Part shown: positions 6,329 to 64,000 of the stretch, one piece after another
Layout of the letters: every line of letters starts with the position of its first letter
Position numbering within the stretch: position 1 is the first letter of the stretch
DNA from: a virus
Length of the DNA stretch: 64,000 bases
Reading direction: 5' to 3' (one strand)
Virus record (IMG/VR): IMGVR_UViG_3300031519_006853
Location: 117,664 to 181,663 of that record
Translations under genes and position numbers: made by a program
Notes under the pieces: model-generated
The model's database searches: none
What the model was told of the DNA's origin: nothing
What the model saw: the letters and a program-made list of their open reading frames with translations, nothing else

Positions 6329-7630
6329 ATGACTGAACTAACAAAAAACCTAAATTATCTACAATCATTTATTGATGAAATGAATGATTCATCTTCGGGT
6401 AATTACAAAATTGAAACTATTAAGAAACACTCTGATAGTAAATTTCTACAAATGATTTTTAATTATACTTATAATCCTTATAAGAAATATAATGTAACTT
6501 CAAAAAATTGTAAAAAGAATTTTGATTTACTTGGCCATGCAAATACTTATGGTAGTATCTTTACTATATTAAATGATTTAGCAAACAGAGTTTCTACTGG
6601 GCATACTTCAATTGCAAATGTTAACAGATTTATCTTAGAAAATAAACAACATGAAACTCTTATTTATAATATTATTGATAGAGACCTTAAAATGGGTGCA
6701 TCTACCAGTTCTATTAACAAAGTAATTCCAGGATGTATACCAACATTCAAGGTTGCATTAGCAAATCCTTATAATGTAAAAAGAGTAGATTTCAAAAGTG
6801 GAGACTGGTACGGTTCTAGAAAATTAGATGGAGTTCGTTGTATTTGCCGAAAAGAAAATGATATAGTAACATTCTTTTCTAGGAGTGGTAAAGAATTTTT
6901 AACATTAGGTAATTTAGAAAATGAAATTCTAAAGATTCCAGGTAACTTTATTTTAGATGGAGAAATCTGTATGGTTGATAAAGATGGCAATGAAGATTTT
7001 CAAGGAATCATGAAACAGATTAGAAAAAAGGATCATCAAATTGAAAAACCTAAATTCTTTGTATTTGATTATTTAACCTTAGAACAATTTGATAATCAAA
7101 CTGGAACTACACCATTAACATTAAGATTAAGAAATGGTTATCATAACTTACCAAATGATGTTAACTATGATATGTTAGAATTCTTACCACAAGAACAATT
7201 AACTACCGAAGAACAATTTACTGAAATGGCAAAGGCTGCTGAAGATGCAGGATTTGAAGGAATCATGGTTAGAAAGAATGTAGGCTATGAAGGTAAAAGA
7301 AGCCATAATCTACTAAAGGTTAAAAAATTCCATGATGCAGAATATACCGTCTTAGGAACTACCAATGCATTTATCCGATGGACAGAAAATGGTAAACAAG
7401 TAGAAAGAGAATGTTTAAGTAACATTACAATTGAACATAAAGGTTGTAAAGTAAATGTAGGATCAGGATTTTCTAAAGAACAAAGAGAAATGTACTTTGA
7501 TTTTCCACAGAATATTATAGGTAAGACTGTAACAATTCAATACTTTGAGGAAACTAAAAATCAAAACGGAGGATTCAGTTTAAGGTTTCCTGTATTAAAA
7601 CATGTTTATACCAATGGCAGAGATTGCTAA
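6329..7630 (+). CDS. lig: ATP-dependent DNA ligase
   Basis: SRKLDGVR (motif I), ILDGEI (III), FFVFD (IIIa), EGIMVR (IV), LLKVK (V), and a C-terminal OB fold ending in LRFPV. Confidence 0.95.
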   Translation: MTELTKNLNYLQSFIDEMNDSSSGNYKIETIKKHSDSKFLQMIFNYTYNPYKKYNVTSKNCKKNFDLLGHANTYGSIFTILNDLANRVSTGHTSIANVNRFILENKQHETLIYNIIDRDLKMGASTSSINKVIPGCIPTFKVALANPYNVKRVDFKSGDWYGSRKLDGVRCICRKENDIVTFFSRSGKEFLTLGNLENEILKIPGNFILDGEICMVDKDGNEDFQGIMKQIRKKDHQIEKPKFFVFDYLTLEQFDNQTGTTPLTLRLRNGYHNLPNDVNYDMLEFLPQEQLTTEEQFTEMAKAAEDAGFEGIMVRKNVGYEGKRSHNLLKVKKFHDAEYTVLGTTNAFIRWTENGKQVERECLSNITIEHKGCKVNVGSGFSKEQREMYFDFPQNIIGKTVTIQYFEETKNQNGGFSLRFPVLKHVYTNGRDC

Positions 7631-7703: not shown

Positions 7704-8285
7704 GTGAGGCTATTTGAAGCAAATAAAAGAAATGCAATTACCATATTTGATGTGGATGATACTCTTGTAGTTACTCGTAGTAAAATTAAAGTTCATAATC
7801 CTAAAACTGGCTTTTCAGCTGATCTTACTCCACAAGAATTTAATACATTTAAGACTAGACCAAATGATAAAATGGATTTTTCAGATTTTCAAAGTTTGGA
7901 TATTCTTAAAGCTGGTAAAATTATTGAATGGGTTTTCTCAATATTAAAAAGAACTATACAAAAAGGTAAGGCTGTTGGTATTATAACAGCAAGAGATGAT
8001 TCAAAACTTATTCAACAATTTTTGTCTCATAATGGAATTAACATAAACCCACAATACATATTTGCTATTAATGATTCTTCATTAGGATTTAAAGGTTCTA
8101 CATCAGAGAAGAAAAAGGAAGCATTTAAAAAATTCATAGATATGGGATTTAATGATTTTACATTTTTTGATGATGATGAAGATAATATTAAATTAGCTAA
8201 GTCTTTAAGTAAAGAACCTAATATTAAAATGAAAGCTAAACTAATTAAAAGCAAATGGATTCCAAAATTCGACGACTTCAAGTAA
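7704..8285 (+). CDS. HAD-superfamily phosphatase (Pnkp-phosphatase / RNA-repair-like)
   Basis: IFDVDDTL (motif I), ITAR (II), K (III), FFDDD (IV). GTG start, N-terminus MRLFE|A. Confidence 0.75.
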   Translation: MRLFEANKRNAITIFDVDDTLVVTRSKIKVHNPKTGFSADLTPQEFNTFKTRPNDKMDFSDFQSLDILKAGKIIEWVFSILKRTIQKGKAVGIITARDDSKLIQQFLSHNGININPQYIFAINDSSLGFKGSTSEKKKEAFKKFIDMGFNDFTFFDDDEDNIKLAKSLSKEPNIKMKAKLIKSKWIPKFDDFK

Positions 8286-56571: not shown

Positions 56572-58305
56572 ATGAAGTCAATCAAAAAGTTTTCTGCGAT
56601 GTCTGCTAAAGATCAACCGATCACAGAGTCAGCAAAAGTAACAAAAGAAGCTGTTGATGAATTGATCAAAAAGATTGGTTTTGACAGTATAGAAGAGTTA
56701 AAAAAGGAGAAGGATCTTCTTGCAAAACTCGAAGCAATGTCTAAGACATTTGCAAAAAGTAATGATATATCTGAGGATGAAATCGAAGAAGATAGAGCTG
56801 AAGATATCGAAGATGAAATGAAAGTCAAAGGCAAAGCTAAATCTTTAGAAGATTCCGAAGATAAAGGCAGTGATGAAGAAGTAGTTGCTGATGTTGAAGA
56901 AATAGAAGAACTATCTGGAAAGGCTAAAGAAATAGAAGATGAGGTTAATACTATCGGTGCTACTAAATCTTTAGAAGATAAAGAAGGTGAAGAAGTTTCT
57001 GATGATCAAGAAATTACTAAAGAAGTTCCAGCTGAAGCTGATGAAGTTAAAGATGAGGATGGCGTGGATGTTGCTTCTGAAGAAAAAGAAACTCCTAAAG
57101 CTACAAGAAGAATTATGGCTTTTGAAGATTTCATTAAAGAAAAAGAAGAAACTATTAATAAAAACATTTCTTATCATGATGATGATGAAGAGCCAGAAGA
57201 TTATGCTGTTCCTGTAGCAGCCTCTGCTGATCCTCTTGCTGAAGGTGCTGAAGCTAAAGGTAAAGAAGATGAGAAAGAAGGTGATGAGTTAGAAGATAAA
57301 GGAGATAAGAAAGTTGATTCTGAAGATGATAAAGAAAAAGCAGACCATTATAAAGGAGCTGTTAAATCTGATGATAAACAAATTGATGCTTTAAAGAAAG
57401 ATGCTAAGTTTGATAAAGAAGAAGAGGAAGATGCTGAAAAGAATGAATCTACTATAATGGATTTTGCAAGTTTTGTAAATGAAGCTTATGACAAAGTTGT
57501 ATTCGGTGGAAACAAAGGAGATAAGTCTAAAACTAAAGAAGATGAAGAAGACTTTGAAGATGAAGATAAAACTGACGAAAAGTTTGATGATGTAGTTCTT
57601 GGAGGTAATAAAGGCGATAAGTCTAAAACTAAAGAAGGAGAAGAAGATTACGAAGATGAAGATAAAAAGGATGAAGCATATGATGTAGTAACTTTAGGTG
57701 GTAATAAAGGCGATAAGTCTAAAACCAAAAAAGGTGAAGAAGATTATGAAGATGATAAAGATGAATCAGTAGATGAAACTGTTGGTCAAGTAATAACTAA
57801 AGTTGAAGGTGATGAAATTGCTGATGAAGTAGCAGGTGATGACGGTATAGCTATTCCTGCAATGAAAGGTGATGGTTCTGAAACTGCTGCTGGGATTGCT
57901 GGTGATATAATGGATAAAGGTAAAGTTAAAAACTTATCTACATTGTCTGGTAAATTAGTTACACCAGATCAAAAGGTTACTGAAGTAATTCCTGATTCTG
58001 CAAACGATGTATCTGAAGATGGTATTGAAATTCCACTAGTTAAAGAAGAGGAAGAAGTATTAGCTGATGATTCTATTGCAGAAAAATTCAGAAAAATTGC
58101 TACCAATAAATTAGGTAAAGTAAATGAAGCAGATATTACTTCTGATGATCAGTTTAAAGAATATGCAATGAAAATGTTAAAAGATGCATTCGGTGCTGAT
58201 TTTGATGAAGCTAAAGCTACTGAAACTGCTGATGGTTTAATTTCTAAGTATGATGGAGATTACGGTGCAATGGTTGGAGCTTTACAGTCTACTATGGGAT
58301 CATAA
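56572..58305 (+). CDS. highly acidic low-complexity protein with internal repeats; putative prohead core/scaffold or internal protein
   Basis: 577 aa, D/E/K-rich, with internal CTS-like segments RIMAFEDFIKE and IMDFASFVNE|A. Preceded by GATATATAA. Confidence 0.55.
   Translation: MKSIKKFSAMSAKDQPITESAKVTKEAVDELIKKIGFDSIEELKKEKDLLAKLEAMSKTFAKSNDISEDEIEEDRAEDIEDEMKVKGKAKSLEDSEDKGSDEEVVADVEEIEELSGKAKEIEDEVNTIGATKSLEDKEGEEVSDDQEITKEVPAEADEVKDEDGVDVASEEKETPKATRRIMAFEDFIKEKEETINKNISYHDDDEEPEDYAVPVAASADPLAEGAEAKGKEDEKEGDELEDKGDKKVDSEDDKEKADHYKGAVKSDDKQIDALKKDAKFDKEEEEDAEKNESTIMDFASFVNEAYDKVVFGGNKGDKSKTKEDEEDFEDEDKTDEKFDDVVLGGNKGDKSKTKEGEEDYEDEDKKDEAYDVVTLGGNKGDKSKTKKGEEDYEDDKDESVDETVGQVITKVEGDEIADEVAGDDGIAIPAMKGDGSETAAGIAGDIMDKGKVKNLSTLSGKLVTPDQKVTEVIPDSANDVSEDGIEIPLVKEEEEVLADDSIAEKFRKIATNKLGKVNEADITSDDQFKEYAMKMLKDAFGADFDEAKATETADGLISKYDGDYGAMVGALQSTMGS
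57481..57768 (+). repeat. Three tandem 96-bp (32-aa) repeats
   Basis: EAYDKVVFGGNKGDKSKTKEDEEDFEDEDKTD / EKFDDVVLGGNKGDKSKTKEGEEDYEDEDKKD / EAYDVVTLGGNKGDKSKTKKGEEDYEDDKDES start at 57481, 57577 and 57673. Confidence 0.9.
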
Positions 58306-58321
58306 CAAAAACATAAACTAA

Positions 58322-59593
58322 ATGAAACATGTAAAATTGTTTGAACAATGGCTGACTGACAAAAGTCAGCCATTTTTGTTTGAAGGTGGTGCTGCTGGTC
58401 ATATGCAGCATCCATTTGATAATAAGGATTTAACCTTTGGAGATTTCAAAGCAATGGTTGATGCTGGACTTAGAGGCCAATTAAACTTTGAAGAAGATCC
58501 TACAGAAAAAACTGATGGGCAAAACTTATTCGTAACTATTCAAGATGGTAAAGTAAAATTTGCTAGAAATAAAGGTCAAATGGCAAACCCATTAGATCTT
58601 AATGGTATTATTGATATGTTTACTGGTCATGCATCAAAGTTAGTAGAAGATACTTATATTTTTGCTGCTAGAGATTTAGATAAGCTATTAAGAAAGCTTT
58701 CACCAGCAGATCAAGAAAAGTATTTTAAGAATGGAAAAGATTTTATGAATATGGAATTAATCTATTCATTGAATCCAAATGTTATTCATTATGATACCGA
58801 TGTTATACAATTTCATGGAATAAAAGAAACAGATGGTAAAGGTAATATCATAGGTACAAATAATAAACCTGCAAAAGAAATAACAAGTATACTCCAAAAG
58901 GTAAAATCTGATATTGGTAAAACATTTAAAATTATACCACCTAAAGTAATTCAATTACAAAGAGATTTAGATTTTACTGCAAATAAGAAAAAGTTTATTA
59001 ATCAAGTTAATGCTTTAGAAAAAAGGTACGGATTAAATGACGGTGATGAAGTTTCAAGATATCATGAAATGTGGTGGAGAGAATTAATAGATAAAGAATT
59101 TCCAACATTAACTCAAGATATTAAAGAAGGTTTACTTAGAAGATGGGCATACGGTGATAAGAAGAGTTTAAACATGAGATCTTTAGCTAAACAAGTTGGT
59201 CCTAAAGAAGCTGCACTGGTTAAGAAGTTTGATAAAGAGGATGTTGCTAAAAAGTATAAAGAAAACATTAGACCATTTGAAGATCTGTTTTTAGAGCTAG
59301 GTTCTATCATTATGAAAAATGCTTCTAACTTCTTAGCTGCTAATCCATCAGGTGAAGCACAAAGACTAAGAAAAGAAATTGAAACTCAAGCAAGTAAGAT
59401 TAAAAAGACAGGTGGTGTAGAACAAATTAAAAAGGTTGAAGCTGAGCTTGCAAGATTAAGTCGTATTGGTGGTATAGAATCAATATTTCCAACTGAAGGT
59501 ATTGTATTTAAATATAAAGGTAAGATCTATAAGCTAACTGGTACCTTTGCTGCAATTAATCAGCTAATGGGTATAATTAAATACGGCAACTAG
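58322..59593 (+). CDS. RNA-ligase-fold (covalent nucleotidyltransferase) protein with CTS-like N-terminus
   Basis: MKHVKLFEQWL...FLFE|GG, TEKTDGQN (motif I KxDG), FARNK (Ia), NMELIY (III), EGIVFK (IV), IYKLTG (V). Confidence 0.6.
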   Translation: MKHVKLFEQWLTDKSQPFLFEGGAAGHMQHPFDNKDLTFGDFKAMVDAGLRGQLNFEEDPTEKTDGQNLFVTIQDGKVKFARNKGQMANPLDLNGIIDMFTGHASKLVEDTYIFAARDLDKLLRKLSPADQEKYFKNGKDFMNMELIYSLNPNVIHYDTDVIQFHGIKETDGKGNIIGTNNKPAKEITSILQKVKSDIGKTFKIIPPKVIQLQRDLDFTANKKKFINQVNALEKRYGLNDGDEVSRYHEMWWRELIDKEFPTLTQDIKEGLLRRWAYGDKKSLNMRSLAKQVGPKEAALVKKFDKEDVAKKYKENIRPFEDLFLELGSIIMKNASNFLAANPSGEAQRLRKEIETQASKIKKTGGVEQIKKVEAELARLSRIGGIESIFPTEGIVFKYKGKIYKLTGTFAAINQLMGIIKYGN

Positions 59594-59662
59594 TTGTTAA
59601 TAACTTTTTTAAAATAATTAGAGAAGTATGGCCACAATCGCGAAAAATTGATTATATTTATA
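59594..59662 (+). promoter_or_regulatory. Conserved early-type promoter element (copy B)
   Basis: Differs from 151-218 only in the T/A run and one C/T substitution. Confidence 0.7.
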
Positions 59663-59682
59663 TATAATAAAATAACAACAAT

Positions 59683-60039
59683 ATGGAACACTTACACACT
59701 TATGAATCCCTTAATGAATCTAAGAAATTAGACACTATTAAAAAACAAGTTTTGGATTTTGCTGAAAAGAACGGCAAATCTAAATGGGGAGACTTACAGA
59801 AATTTATTTTAACTCTTAAGGGCTTAGATCCAAATGATAGAGATAATCGTGGGCAGTTCTCATCTTATTTTTCTGGTGGGTCTTCTTGGCAATCAAAAGG
59901 AAAGGATACTAAATTAGGTAGAGATGCAAATTCTCATGGTTTATTAATGAGGCCTACTAAACAAGATCCAAGATATTTAGAAAAAGATGGTAAAGATTAT
60001 ATTGTAAAGGTATGGGATGGTAAATCTAAATTAGCATAA
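59683..60039 (+). CDS. small protein with CTS-like N-terminus
   Basis: 118 aa starting MEHLHTYESLNE|S. Confidence 0.65.
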   Translation: MEHLHTYESLNESKKLDTIKKQVLDFAEKNGKSKWGDLQKFILTLKGLDPNDRDNRGQFSSYFSGGSSWQSKGKDTKLGRDANSHGLLMRPTKQDPRYLEKDGKDYIVKVWDGKSKLA

Positions 60040-60040
60040 T

Positions 60041-60367
60041 ATGAAAAACTTTAATGAATTTGTAAATGAAGCTATCAGCTATAAAGATAGAGATGGTAAA
60101 TCATTTAAAATAAAAGGTATGAATTTTGTTTATACTGAGCAAGGCGGTAGATTTTATGGAACATATTTATATGACGTAGCAAAAACTGCAAATGTTCAAT
60201 GGACATCAAAGATATCTATAGATGAAACTAATAAATTATTAAAGTCATTAGGGGTTAAGTTAGAGCTACCAAATAGATATGATGATAGAGATCTGGATAA
60301 GATATGTAAAGAAGTATCAAAAAAGAGTATAGTATGCGACCACGGTGATTATATGGATGTATCATAA
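60041..60367 (+). CDS. small protein with CTS-like N-terminus
   Basis: 108 aa starting MKNFNEFVNE|A, a close match to T4 MKTYQEFIAE. Confidence 0.65.
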   Translation: MKNFNEFVNEAISYKDRDGKSFKIKGMNFVYTEQGGRFYGTYLYDVAKTANVQWTSKISIDETNKLLKSLGVKLELPNRYDDRDLDKICKEVSKKSIVCDHGDYMDVS

Positions 60368-60407
60368 TTAATATGTAATAATAATAGGAAAATAATATAA
60401 GTGTATT

Positions 60408-60441
60408 AGAGGTGAGTTAAACGACTCATCTTTTTTGTTTT
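60408..60441 (+). terminator. Intrinsic (rho-independent) terminator
   Basis: AGAGGTGAGT-TAAACG-ACTCATCTTT hairpin followed by a T-rich tract, after the two small ORFs. Confidence 0.75.
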
Positions 60442-60489
60442 AAACATTCTTTAAATCTAATATATAAAAGGTATAACTAAAAACTAATA

Positions 60490-63291
60490 ATGAAAGAGTT
60501 AACAAACATATATAAAGAAGCAGGGCAACAGTTCGTAGATGATCTATTTAAAGATTACCTATTAGTGACTGAAAAATTATCAGGATCATCATTCTCATTT
60601 GAAAGACATGGTGATGAATTGAAATTTTTTAAAGGCAGCAACAAGCAGCCTATTAATTTAGTGGATAGAACACTAATGATGTATTATGAACCTGCAATTC
60701 AATACATACTTTCACAAACAGTAGATAATTTAGAAGACTTACCAGAATATTGGAGATTTTGTTTTCAATACTTTGTTAATAATCAACCTGGTGCAATTGA
60801 ATATGATAATATGCCAAAGAATGGTTTAATACTTACTCATATTCAAATTAGAAATGCAAAAGGTAAAATTGCTAAAGTTATAGAAGATCCTAGAGTATTA
60901 AGAGACTGGGCATCTGCGTTTCAAGTAACTCCGCTCATTCCAATATTTAGTGGATATTTAAAAGAAGAACAAAAAAGAAAGATTAGAGAATTTCTTTCAA
61001 CTCCAAAAGAAGATCAGTTAGAAGTATTTGGTACAAGTTCATTTGCTAAATATTTAATTGATTCTTTAAATCCAACGATTAAGCAAACAACATTACAGAA
61101 TGATTTAAATAAACCTATTGATTCTATTATCTTTAAGTTTTTTAAACAAGGAACTAATCAAGTCTTTGCTGCTAAAATGATTGATCCTTATACTGAAGCT
61201 TTAATGAAAGAAAAAGAACCTATAGATCTAAGAAGAGCTCCTGCTGATATTAATGAAATACTTTTATTAGATATTTTAGCTTTTATAGAAGAAAGAGGAT
61301 TAAGAGGTGGCGAACTATTAACTTCAATACCAAGTGAAAGGTATTTAGAATTAATGTCAAATCTATTTAATGACTATATTGCAAAAAGAGGAGTTGATCT
61401 ACAAAAAATAGATATTGAAAAAGCTGAATTTGCAAAAGGGCCAGAATTTAATCTAAATTTAGATTTAATTAAAAATAATAGAACAAGAGAAATATTACAA
61501 AAATCTCCAAAGTTACAAAACTTATATAAAATAATGTTAGGTTCTTTAAGAAAGAAAAGAAACCCTAATCGAATAGGCGCAGTAATGACAGCATCAGTAA
61601 TAGAAGATTTTAATAAAATGGTTTCTAAAGTAAGTGATACTATTAATAAAGAAACATCAAATGAATTTAAAACTTTTGGTGACTATTTAGATAATAAGCT
61701 TACTGAAGAAATAAATCATAAAGATTTAGAAGAATTGATTGTTGAAGAAAAAGTATTAAACTATAATAAATTTATTAACTTAGCTAAAGTAGATATATTA
61801 AATGAAGCTAAGAAGATATCTAAAAAAAGTATAGAGGAATTTTGGAAAAATGGATACAAGAAATATTCTAAGTCAACTGATGTGACAGGGGTATCTTCAA
61901 GAAAGGGAGATACTGGTGAAGTACTTAGAGCTAACTTTGGACCTAACGACGGAACAGCAGAAAAATCTATAAAAGATTTTTTACTTAAGCATGCTGGGAT
62001 TAAACCAAATACTTATAAAATAGAAAGTTTACCAGTAGGTGTTATTTCATCTGACTACGCTGCTTATAAAATAATAATACAAAGAGGTGTTAAAAATAAG
62101 TTAGGACAAGATTATGGAATTAGTGATTTCTTTATTATAACAAATAGATATAAGATTTCTAAAAAGACTGGAGAGGCTTCAGTTATAGGTAGAAAGGATT
62201 TAACCCCAGATAGACTAGGTGTAGCTAAACCTAACGGTATTGAATATCATAATGCGGCTGCGCTATATGCTAAAGTAGAGCCTAAAATTAAAGCTTTAAA
62301 ATATCCTGATAATTATAAAGAGTTTATTTTACAATCAACTCGCGAAGTTATGGATAGTAGCAATAGTGGAAAGTTTACTGATTTTAAAAAATATGCAAAT
62401 GCACCAACACAAATCTTAAATTATAAAATTACAGAATCTTTGTTTGATGGTATAGATCAATTATCAATTCAAAACTTTCAAAATGATTACGGTGAAATAT
62501 TAGGTGGCTTTATGTTATTTAATTTATTACAAGATACTGGTAAAGGTATAAGATATCCAATTAATTCCAACGAAAAGCTAGTAGATTTTTATTTTGATAA
62601 CTATGCAATATCATCAAAGGCAGGTAGGGGCGGTACTCCTAGTGGTGATACTATTATTCAAAGAATATCTTCAATGTACTTAGACGATAAATTAGATTTT
62701 AGTACAATACAAGAACAAGACTTTTATAATTATGTAATAAAAGTATGGACTAATCCAACAAAGCTAGCAAGAAGTGGTATTTATAACACTGTAATGAATT
62801 TATGCAGTGTAAACATTACAGATAAAGCTAATTCAGGTTATTGGTATTTAATAGCCGAATCTAAACTTCAGCCTAATTTATTAACACAAGATTCAGTAGT
62901 GTCTTTCTTAGATGAATTACATTTAGATGAAAATAAGTTTAAAGAATTCTTAAATACATTATGGACAAAGTCAGGTATGGCTTGGAACGATAAAAAATTA
63001 AACGCAGCATATGATGGCTACATTGCATTAGGTAGAAATAGAATAGGTGTAGTATTTTATCCTTTAATGGTTGAAGCTACTAAAATACTTAATGAAAAAT
63101 TCACAAAGCAATTAACACAGTATTCACAATTAGTAACTGATGTTAAACAATTATACTTAGATGTTTTAGTTAAGAAAGGATTGTTTCAATTTAAAACAGT
63201 TCCATTTTCTAAAGCTACATTTGTATTTGAACAAAAAGGAAGTATAGCCAATCCTTTTAATGCTAATATGGGGATAAGAATACTAAAGTAA
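60490..63291 (+). CDS. 933-aa multidomain protein: degenerate ligase-fold N-terminus plus putative PD-(D/E)xK-like C-terminal domain
   Basis: VTEKLSGSSF motif-I-like Lys, internal CTS-like FKTFGDYLDNKLTE|E and ILNE|A, and C-terminal YGEILG...NEKLVDF.....ISSK. Confidence 0.5.
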   Translation: MKELTNIYKEAGQQFVDDLFKDYLLVTEKLSGSSFSFERHGDELKFFKGSNKQPINLVDRTLMMYYEPAIQYILSQTVDNLEDLPEYWRFCFQYFVNNQPGAIEYDNMPKNGLILTHIQIRNAKGKIAKVIEDPRVLRDWASAFQVTPLIPIFSGYLKEEQKRKIREFLSTPKEDQLEVFGTSSFAKYLIDSLNPTIKQTTLQNDLNKPIDSIIFKFFKQGTNQVFAAKMIDPYTEALMKEKEPIDLRRAPADINEILLLDILAFIEERGLRGGELLTSIPSERYLELMSNLFNDYIAKRGVDLQKIDIEKAEFAKGPEFNLNLDLIKNNRTREILQKSPKLQNLYKIMLGSLRKKRNPNRIGAVMTASVIEDFNKMVSKVSDTINKETSNEFKTFGDYLDNKLTEEINHKDLEELIVEEKVLNYNKFINLAKVDILNEAKKISKKSIEEFWKNGYKKYSKSTDVTGVSSRKGDTGEVLRANFGPNDGTAEKSIKDFLLKHAGIKPNTYKIESLPVGVISSDYAAYKIIIQRGVKNKLGQDYGISDFFIITNRYKISKKTGEASVIGRKDLTPDRLGVAKPNGIEYHNAAALYAKVEPKIKALKYPDNYKEFILQSTREVMDSSNSGKFTDFKKYANAPTQILNYKITESLFDGIDQLSIQNFQNDYGEILGGFMLFNLLQDTGKGIRYPINSNEKLVDFYFDNYAISSKAGRGGTPSGDTIIQRISSMYLDDKLDFSTIQEQDFYNYVIKVWTNPTKLARSGIYNTVMNLCSVNITDKANSGYWYLIAESKLQPNLLTQDSVVSFLDELHLDENKFKEFLNTLWTKSGMAWNDKKLNAAYDGYIALGRNRIGVVFYPLMVEATKILNEKFTKQLTQYSQLVTDVKQLYLDVLVKKGLFQFKTVPFSKATFVFEQKGSIANPFNANMGIRILK

Positions 63292-63302
63292 ATATATAAG
63301 GT

Positions 63303-64000
63303 ATGGATAATTTAAATGATTTAAATAATTTCTTAAATGAAAAGAGAGTAACTGTTAAGAGAAGGTACACTGAAGCGTATCCTGCTAAGAATGTATCAAC
63401 GGCTGCGAGGGTAAGAAGTACTATTTTAGATTCTATTGCCGATGGTCATATTACTGAAGATGAGATGACGAGAATACTTTCTGAACTTAAAGCTCATAAG
63501 AGATGGTTAAGTAGAAATAAAGGTTTATTTAATATTAGTGAAGATCAAGCAGGAATTAAAACTTTTTCGCTTTCTCCTTATGGATTAAGAGTAAAGAATA
63601 AAACCACAGTACTTAATGAAGCTTTAAAAGTACCTCATGAAGAAAAGGGTAAAAAACCAGTAAATATGTTTGTTGGTAGATTTCAACCTTTTACACTAGG
63701 ACATGTTAAAGTATTTGAAAAAATGTATAAAGAAAACGGTTTACCTGTTGTAGTTTATATGGTAAGAGGCAGTAAGCCTGATCCAGAGAAAAGACCATTT
63801 GATGAAGATATGCAACAAGCAATGTTTGCTAAAATGAAAAAGCAATATCCATTTTTGGAAGCAAGCTTTGTAGTTCCTAACGGTGCAATTGATACAATGT
63901 TTGCAGCAGCAAGACCAGCATACGAACCTATGATGTGGGGTTATGGTACTGATAGAAAGAAAGATTATGGTGCTATGATTGATAAACAATCATACCGAGA
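63303..64000 (+). CDS. cytidylyltransferase-family / NMN adenylyltransferase-like nucleotidyltransferase (5' part; runs off the window; absent from ORF track)
   Basis: ATG 63303 opens MDNLNDLNNFLNE|K..., later VLNE|ALK and FVGRFQPFTLGH ((T/H)xGH), RPF, GTDR. Open to the window end. Confidence 0.8.
   Translation, partial: MDNLNDLNNFLNEKRVTVKRRYTEAYPAKNVSTAARVRSTILDSIADGHITEDEMTRILSELKAHKRWLSRNKGLFNISEDQAGIKTFSLSPYGLRVKNKTTVLNEALKVPHEEKGKKPVNMFVGRFQPFTLGHVKVFEKMYKENGLPVVVYMVRGSKPDPEKRPFDEDMQQAMFAKMKKQYPFLEASFVVPNGAIDTMFAAARPAYEPMMWGYGTDRKKDYGAMIDKQSYR

Follow-up and report, generated by a model that had tools for sequence, protein, structure and literature searches.

The final part of a 181.7-kb viral contig (IMG/VR record IMGVR_UViG_3300031519_006853; ~30% G+C, estimated completeness 65%) was analysed as a 64-kb stretch, referred to here as the window, the last 5.7 kb of which (58322-64000) carries the genes of three functionally linked proteins: LIG1 and LIG2, both with a predicted ligase fold, and NT, a predicted nucleotidyltransferase of the HxGH type. 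By gene content the source is a marine T4-like phage, and baseplate and tail-fibre proteins, gp32 and the UvsW helicase are all encoded within the window. Across ~80 phage contigs, NT is obligately linked to a ligase-fold domain, through fusion to either LIG2 or LIG1. The reading we favour, tentatively and at a little under an even chance, is that the region encodes a head-loaded kit for nucleic-acid end-joining or RNA repair. Between the LIG1 gene (P0001) and the genes P0002 and P0003 lie two small genes, P0004 (59683-60039) and P0005 (60041-60367), on the same (+) strand. The parts of the module itself are listed below, with slashes marking module junctions here and throughout.

58322..59593, + strand: LIG1 (P0001, 423 aa), in which helical residues ~218-381 interrupt the predicted nucleotidyltransferase (NTase) core (~24-217 and 382-417)
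58322..58372, + strand: LIG1 N-terminal leader MKHVKLFEQWLTDKSQP, of low pLDDT and outside the ligase domain
60490..61806, + strand: LIG2 module (residues 1-439 of P0002, 933 aa, 60490-63291), a modelled Rnl2-like NTase domain (1-245) plus a helical domain, ending at DILNE/A
61807..63291, + strand: exchangeable C-terminal module of P0002 (~494 aa), possibly a PD-(D/E)xK-like nuclease
63303..63620, + strand: N-terminal module of P0003 (63303-63998), residues 1-106, with leader MDNLNDLNNFLNE and ending VLNE/A
63621..63998, + strand: NT domain, a predicted GRFQPFTLGH adenylyltransferase resembling NadM-type nicotinamide mononucleotide (NMN) adenylyltransferases (NMNATs), cut by the contig end

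A constant link between NT and a ligase-fold domain

The linkage was surveyed by scanning 80 viral contigs with locally built hidden Markov models. An arrangement that we call type A, found in 38 contigs and also in the window, in the locus L003 and in LR756500, has the order gp32-orf357-orf149-UvsW-orf577-LIG1 followed by the LIG2 gene, and this order is conserved in 34-37 loci. LIG2 and NT form a single open reading frame (ORF) of 615-645 aa in 33 IMG/VR contigs and in LR756500 (tblastn 47.5% identity, 2e-55), which comes from a 462-kb uncultured phage and is the nearest record to the window (its UvsW is 57% identical); megablast of the 58322-64000 region against phage records gave no match. 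In the proteins P0373 and P0374, LIG2 is joined to NT at LNE/ALKVPH. The form seen in the window, with a long extra C-terminal module on LIG2 and with NT placed in the next gene, after a 106-residue module, is confined to a subclade made up of the window, L003 and L009. In relatives the 106-residue module is usually a separate gene downstream of LIG2-NT, and homologous ORFs, starting with leaders that resemble the T4 capsid-targeting sequence (CTS), are present there in 34 fetched loci (35 with the window included).

In the type B arrangement, found in 42 contigs and in Microcystis phage Mel-JY01, NT, variable inserts and LIG1 make up one protein of 600-1300 aa. The gene lies 1-5 kb upstream of TerL and on the same strand in 40 loci, with a prohead protease beyond TerL in 16 of these. 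A wider census of the LIG1 family, made with HMMER against 1.8 billion cluster representatives, returned 1834 LIG1-bearing clusters, all of them viral where the taxonomy is known, with LIG1 usually forming the C-terminal ~410 residues of proteins of 500-2000 aa; close homologues of P0001 in marine metagenomes number more than 2000. Amongst 78 long representatives, the domains fused to LIG1 comprise CTP_transf_like (49), Zeta_toxin/AAA_33 P-loop kinases (11 family hits), DUF5661 (9), ROS_MUCR (6), PolyA_pol of the CCA-adding type (3, with HD in 2), a 2H phosphoesterase (1) and an ADP-ribosyltransferase (ART) toxin domain (1).

The original prediction for this DNA, which grouped the three genes into a nucleotidyl-transfer module, was exposed to the possibility that they do not occur together in relatives. 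Since NT is always tied to a ligase-fold domain, that objection falls decisively: the genes not only co-occur but are fused (33 contigs with LIG2-NT, 42 with NT-LIG1). The three ORFs and the motifs ascribed to them are likewise present at their given positions, namely EKTDG (K63), EGIVFK (392-397) and YKL (403-405) in P0001, EKLSG (K29) in P0002 and GRFQPFTLGH in P0003.

LIG1, a divergent RNA-ligase fold

P0001 has no match in Pfam, PHROG, NCBIfam or the PDB (phmmer and profile searches). Its fold was examined with an AF2 model (pLDDT 90.8, from an alignment of 50 diverse homologues) that, like the model of LIG2, was compared with known structures by Foldseek (PDB) and by an independent all-against-all alignment (VIA, Z scores). 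VIA placed ten ligases on top, with NgrRnl at Z 9.3, Trl1 at 8.5, REL1 at 8.1, Rnl2 at 7.7 and Rnl1 at 7.5. The best PDB matches by Foldseek were the Trl1 ligase domain, T4 Rnl1, Rnl3 and DNA ligases, with marginal E-values (best 1.2e-3, none at or below 1e-3) and probabilities of up to 0.97. The top matches of both searches are ligases only. Residues E62, K63, D65, G66, R82, E145, E392 and G393 are invariant in the 50 homologues and K404 is nearly so, a set that amounts to full motifs I, Ia, III, IV and V, and an extra near-invariant N-terminal segment, GGAxGHMxHPF, occupies residues 22-32. As modelled, LIG1 is an intact but very divergent nucleotidyltransferase of the RNA-ligase superfamily, with a core like those of Rnl1, Trl1 and Rnl5, and it is expected to be catalytically active.

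With T4 Rnl1 (gp63), the Trl1 ligase domain and NgrRnl (Rnl5), LIG1 shares the covalent NTase core together with K63, R82, E145, E392-G393 and K404, and its relatives add P-loop kinase and 2H domains in the manner of Trl1. Unlike those enzymes, to which it has no detectable sequence similarity, it possesses a ~160-residue helical insert between motifs IIIa and IV, the GGAxGHMxHPF segment, a CTS-like leader and an obligate HxGH transferase partner. Membership of the Rnl1 family (Pfam RNA_lig_T4_1) or of Trl1-LIG was considered and rejected, there being no sequence-profile match and the helical region being an insert inside the NTase core rather than a C-terminal domain.

LIG2 and its exchangeable C-terminal module

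P0002 also lacks any Pfam, PHROG, NCBIfam or PDB sequence match (phmmer and profile). The AF2 model of the LIG2 N-domain (pLDDT 83, from 32 mostly stand-alone homologues) superposes at residues 1-245 on T4 Rnl2 (Foldseek E 2.4e-7; VIA Z 11.1, root mean square deviation 4.0 over 194 residues), and its top fold matches are exclusively RNA or DNA ligases. The ligase NTase fold that had been predicted for both large proteins is thus borne out by Foldseek and VIA on the AF2 models.

Compared with T4 RNA ligase 2 (gp24.1; PDB 2hvq, 1s68), LIG2 shares the superposable adenylyltransferase domain, the Glu-Lys of motif I, the Arg of motif Ia and a Lys of motif V: E28, K29, R60 and K229 are invariant and the motif IV acid is kept. 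The complete catalytic set of Rnl2, with a motif III Glu and a KxK in motif V, is not present. Unlike T4 Rnl2, LIG2 has no conserved motif III acid (Q93 here; D, R or E in relatives) and only K229 is invariant in motif V; it differs also in its helical C-domain, in its fusion to NT or to exchangeable modules and in giving no sequence-profile match. On its model, then, LIG2 appears to be an Rnl2-like domain that has kept the motif I Lys and residues of motifs Ia, IV and V and has lost the motif III acid. Its activity is uncertain because that acid is Q here and variable in relatives; its predicted active-site lysine is nevertheless under selection. BLASTP and family hhalign comparisons of P0001 with P0002 were not significant (probability 2%), although the two motif I segments were nevertheless paired, and the paralogy of LIG1 and LIG2 therefore rests on fold rather than on sequence.

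Beyond the LIG2 domain, the C-terminal module of P0002 is swapped for unrelated sequence in relatives whose LIG2 domains are 80-93% identical, with the breakpoint always at ..NFINLGK[VI]x[ILV]xE/. The variant present here, which has no Pfam or PHROG match, has invariant residues E669, D699, S708 and K710 (S708-x-K710) and a weak Atlas lead to R.HinP1I, and is possibly a PD-(D/E)xK-like nuclease; none of the nine alternative C-terminal variants matches a Pfam family. Swappable modules of this kind would mark an arms-race locus.

NT, a predicted HxGH adenylyltransferase

Amongst P0001, P0002 and P0003, a family match is found for P0003 only (PF01467, 1.5e-7, above cut-off). The contig ends within the gene, so that the protein stops at residue 232; its full-length orthologue has 372 aa. 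A profile of 28 NT sequences gave NadM-type NMNATs as its first eleven PDB matches (8.5e-10 to 4e-4, with MJ0541 at 8.5e-10), PPAT and NadD ranking after the NadM entries. The last His of GRFQPFTLGH is invariant, as are S147 and R152 of ISATxVR; the second motif of the orthologue reads ISASKVR. NMNAT models are also the best named NCBIfam matches, with scores of 24-34 bits against equivalog cut-offs of 127-181 and with only ~55 N-terminal residues aligned; the alignment takes in just the HxGH and ISxTxxR segments. From these motifs NT can be classed as a predicted HxGH adenylyltransferase whose nearest relatives are NadM-type NMNATs, in keeping with the earlier description of the third gene as a GRFQPFTLGH nucleotidyltransferase.

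Whilst the GRFQPF..GH and ISxTxxR motifs are shared with NadM NMNATs (M. jannaschii MJ0541, Francisella and Synechocystis NadM-Nudix), NT is unlike them in scoring far under the equivalog cut-offs, in having T or G in place of the first His of HxGH and in its constant link to a ligase-fold domain.

As a side observation, the C-terminus of the full-length NT orthologue (L003:15965-16085) contains an internal leader-like sequence, MKNLKSLNTFTVNE/S, and behind it a further short module, as would fit a chain of modules separated by Glu-ending sites.

CTS-like leaders and the case for head packaging

N-termini were scored by BLOSUM similarity to the core of the T4 CTS, which we take to be KTYQEFIAE; the 99th percentile of internal windows is a score of 17. 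Seven of the 216 ORF N-termini on the contig score at least 20, against 0.7 expected from internal windows, and this ~10-fold enrichment suggests a sizeable set of head-loaded proteins. CTS-like examples in the contig (window positions 50777, 54341, 60041 and others) are MAKLKTYSEFLNE, MKNFRTYGEFITE and MKTFKDYLTE. The leaders of LIG1 orthologues, which include MKLFTYQEFLNE, MKFLKSYEEFLNE, MKKLYTFKEFLSE and MKTLLNYTEFLIE, have a median score of 20, with 32 of 41 scoring at least 17, and are separated from LILEGGAAGH by a spacer that varies in both length and sequence. Genes of the P0003 type start MATFEEFLNE, MKKFDEFIGE and MNFNEFLNE, and P0005 scores 25. The score of P0002 is 14, and its N-terminus is not a tag, because the first 20 residues are a conserved, confidently modelled part of the ligase fold and align to Rnl2 from residue 8. 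The idea that all of these proteins are CTS-tagged consequently holds for P0005, for the LIG1 orthologues and for the P0003-type genes, is marginal for P0001 itself and has to be given up for LIG2.

The pattern [ILV]-x-E recurs at module junctions (DILNE/A after LIG2, VLNE/A before NT and INE/S before LIG1 in fusions), which fits cleavage after Glu by proteases of the gp21 type (PMC9026906). A gp21-type prohead protease, matching Peptidase_S77 (PF03420) with E 6e-16, is encoded upstream of the window (G000:18245-18595). The CTS itself is known from T4, where it marks internal proteins for loading into the head (PMC3012670, PMC9026906). With T4 IPI-III and Alt, the proteins described here have in common a leader of 10-13 residues with the pattern M-K-x-[FY]-x-[EQ]-F-[LIV]-x-E, a gp21-type protease and diverse, exchangeable cargo (PMC3012670, PMC9026906). 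They are unlike them in that the cargo would consist of nucleotidyltransferases and in that some resemble multi-module chains joined by [ILV]xE.

Homologues of NT have been found by mass spectrometry (MS) in the virions of four T4-like cyanophages, S-SCSM1, S-SZBM1, S-CREM2 and S-CBWM1 (PMC9602691, PMC9146016, PMC10665884). The papers annotate the protein as NMNAT, and the S-SCSM1 authors remark on its frequent detection. Because cyanophage virion proteomes contain these transferase homologues, head packaging of LIG1 and NT is plausible by analogy. The virion delivery put forward in the original prediction is strengthened by the CTS-like leaders on LIG1 and NT genes, the gp21-type protease and the MS of NT homologues in cyanophage virions; this support does not extend to the ligases themselves in virions.

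A possible cyanophage counterpart

The 'cytitidyltransferase' of T4-like cyanophages is a homologue of NT, with 247 phage records reaching E<=1e-3; P0003 itself matches Syn33_182 with 2e-8 and S-SCSM1 gp281, the virion protein annotated as NMNAT, with 5e-8. The cyanophage gene, whose leader MK[KS]FSAFLTE is CTS-like as in the genes described here, comes immediately after a DUF6267 gene in 58 of 66 contigs; in Prochlorococcus phage Syn33 the DUF6267-NT pair lies between gp41 and gp61 (L089:4860-6915). The DUF6267 motifs HLEHLED, KWDG and EGFVI..YKLV parallel those of LIG1 (HxxH, KxDG and EGxV..YKL), and an Atlas fold search linked LIG1 to DUF6267-bearing clusters (TM 0.63-0.68); DUF6267 is possibly a short relative of LIG1 that has the ligase fold. 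P0001 has no DUF6267 Pfam match, and hhalign of DUF6267 against LIG1 was not significant with either a single sequence or a 70-sequence alignment, for which reason we treat the relation as a lead only.

In S-SCSM1 (L090:2242-7720), five consecutive genes around the NMNAT-like gene are labelled as virion proteins in RefSeq (MS). One side observation concerns gp282 of that phage (444 aa), which has a PADIY...VSLKK pattern reminiscent of PD-(D/E)xK nucleases. Comparison by phmmer of the P0002 C-terminal module, orf577, P0004 and P0005 with the Syn33 and S-SCSM1 neighbours yielded no significant match.

T4-like phages are already known to carry RNA ligases and, separately, NMNAT-like enzymes; no description of an obligate coupling of the two, which appears here as fusions of either orientation over some 1800 sequence clusters, was found in the literature searched. 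No paper was found on DUF6267, on Mel-JY01 or on an RNA ligase together with a cytidylyltransferase, and a paper on polyvalent proteins makes no mention of a ligase and HxGH transferase combination. Both ligase-fold families lack an assignment in Pfam and PHROG. The present reading would offer a testable function for abundant marine phage dark matter, possibly including the DUF6267 and 'cytitidyltransferase' pair, and would give a reason why an NMNAT-like enzyme is detected, repeatedly and so far without explanation, in the virions of cyanophages. Should ejection along with the phage DNA prove real, these would be the first enzymes that join nucleic acids to be known amongst phage internal proteins.

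A head-loaded repair kit?

Two genes elsewhere in the window bear on function.

6329-7630: DNA ligase, PF01068 2.4e-22 plus OB domain
7704..8285, + strand: HAD-type (FDVDDTL) ORF with GTG start, phrog_415 'polynucleotide kinase' 4.2e-11 and weak HAD hits

The first bears out the earlier statement that a conventional DNA ligase already exists at 6329. The second adjoins it, 50 kb from LIG1; it has no PDB sequence match and is probably a Pnk-type 3'-phosphatase without a kinase domain. Its phrog_415 match upholds the suggestion that it is a candidate partner, and a role in end healing is possible.

We favour the repair reading because of the RNA-ligase folds, the healing domains found in relatives and the Pnk-like HAD protein at 7704. 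Their CTS-like leaders would direct LIG1 and NT into the prohead, where the protease would trim both proteins, and they would later leave the head together with the DNA. Once in the cell, the proteins would join or repair broken polynucleotide ends, most likely those of RNA, for example tRNA cut by host anticodon nucleases. LIG1 would carry out classic Lys-AMP chemistry, and NT would either supply the adenylate donor (NAD+) or directly adenylylate the 5'-phosphate end, a reaction chemically equivalent to NMN + ATP -> NAD+. LIG2 would serve as a partner that seals or binds duplexes or nicks specifically and bears exchangeable C-terminal effector modules. The scheme has the logic of ligase plus end healing in common with repair by T4 Pnk-Rnl1 and bacterial Pnkp/Hen1, given the Pnk-like HAD protein and the kinase, 2H and CCA-adding fusions in relatives. 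Unlike those systems, no 5'-kinase or methyltransferase was found in the genome, where an HxGH transferase and two different ligase folds are present instead.

A more specific version of this scheme, to which we give a distinctly low probability, makes the HxGH domain, in place of an NAD+ synthase, an enzyme that adenylylates the 5'-phosphate of polynucleotides, or else the half that regenerates an RNA ligase cycle dependent on NAD+. Ligation would be split between two unrelated nucleotidyltransferase folds, NT providing the App-end or donor and the ligase-fold domains, including the partly degenerate LIG2, doing the sealing, with the whole kit preloaded in the capsid by means of T4-type leaders and freed from its modular chains by the prohead protease.

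Several observations count against a head-loaded repair kit. The nearest relatives of NT make NAD+ and need no ligase for this. The leader of LIG1 in the window has a marginal score of 16 and ends in D, and LIG2 has no separable leader. The virion MS covers NT only, in no proteome with a ligase-fold partner, and its authors allow for carry-over. LIG1 starts 16 nt after the upstream gene, inside a replication/recombination block (gp32, UvsW), and because of this context and spacing late, head-type expression is not evident; the T4 late-promoter-like word TATAAATA is uninformative, with 20 sites against 20 expected and so no enrichment. Finally, a search of the 181 kb available, from a record that is 65% complete, found no 5'-kinase (including AAA_33), 2H/CPDase, CCA-adding enzyme or Tpt1, and the same scope applies to every statement here that a gene is missing from the contig. 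The earlier picture of a nucleotidyl-transfer module accordingly survives in its folds, its HxGH third gene and the co-occurrence of its members; it loses the separable tag on LIG2 and has to accommodate a gp32/UvsW replication/recombination setting.

Two alternatives, each of rather low probability, are nonetheless serious rivals. The first is that the module serves NAD+ supply, NT being a true NMNAT, brought in or produced early, that rebuilds or boosts NAD+, for instance to counter NAD+-depleting defence or to provide for NAD+-consuming phage enzymes; the ligase-fold partners would then be NAD+-using or NMN-releasing, and the fusion would constitute an NAD+/NMN cycle. This accords with the eleven NadM NMNATs that head the PDB profile matches, with NMNAT models being the best named in NCBIfam, with the NMNAT annotation of the cyanophage homologue found in virions and with the one fused relative that has an ADP-ribosyltransferase domain. 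It sits poorly with scores far under the equivalog cut-offs, from an alignment of the HxGH and ISxTxxR segments alone, and with the failure to find NAMPT in the 181-kb record. It also leaves the constant tie of NT to a ligase-fold domain unexplained, and the fusions with kinase, 2H and CCA-adding domains are suggestive of RNA ends.

The second, which we rate about equally low, is that the proteins are never packaged and act inside the cell as replication/recombination accessories, sealing RNA-DNA or RNA nicks (at primers or R-loops) alongside gp32 and UvsW, the leaders being merely a common helix. The conserved gene order from gp32 to LIG2 in 34-37 loci, the position of the Syn33 gene pair between gp41 and gp61, and the similarity of LIG2, itself leaderless, to the nick-sealing Rnl2 would all be expected on this account. 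However, the T4 CTS pattern of the leaders is retained despite variation in the spacer that follows, NT homologues occur in purified virions and the type B version lies beside TerL and the prohead protease.

That last position favours a third possibility, which we consider highly unlikely: a genome-end or packaging function, in which nicks or termini of the phage DNA are processed or sealed during packaging or right after ejection. The type B NT-LIG1 gene precedes TerL by 1-5 kb, on the same strand, in 40 loci, with the prohead protease further on in 16; the best structural matches, however, are RNA ligases rather than DNA ligases, there is no OB domain, and the phage already has the conventional DNA ligase at 6329. 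Least probable is structural moonlighting with catalysis secondary, as in T4 gp63 (Rnl1), which doubles as a tail-fibre attachment factor: LIG1 does resemble the Rnl1/Trl1 clade, but its catalytic residues are invariant across ~1800 clusters and its obligate NT partner would have no structural rationale.

Neighbouring genes

The remaining features lie immediately upstream of LIG1 and between LIG1 and LIG2.

56572..58305, + strand: acidic 577-aa protein (orf577), immediately upstream of LIG1, with a homologue in 33 type A loci
59594..59682, + strand: repeated regulatory cassette (TTGTTAATAACTTTT...TATGGCCACAATCGC...TTATATTTATA), preceding the inserted small genes
59683..60367, + strand: P0004 (118 aa, CTS-like leader MEHLHTYESLNE) and P0005 (108 aa, CTS-like leader MKNFNEFVNE)

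No family match was found for orf577 in Pfam, PHROGs or NCBIfam. P0004 and P0005 have no family match and no homologue in any other fetched locus, and are inserted genes outside the conserved module. A terminator-like hairpin with a T-run follows P0005 at ~60412-60440, and the segment 59594-60440 as a whole resembles a mobile cassette of early genes that has been inserted between LIG1 and LIG2.

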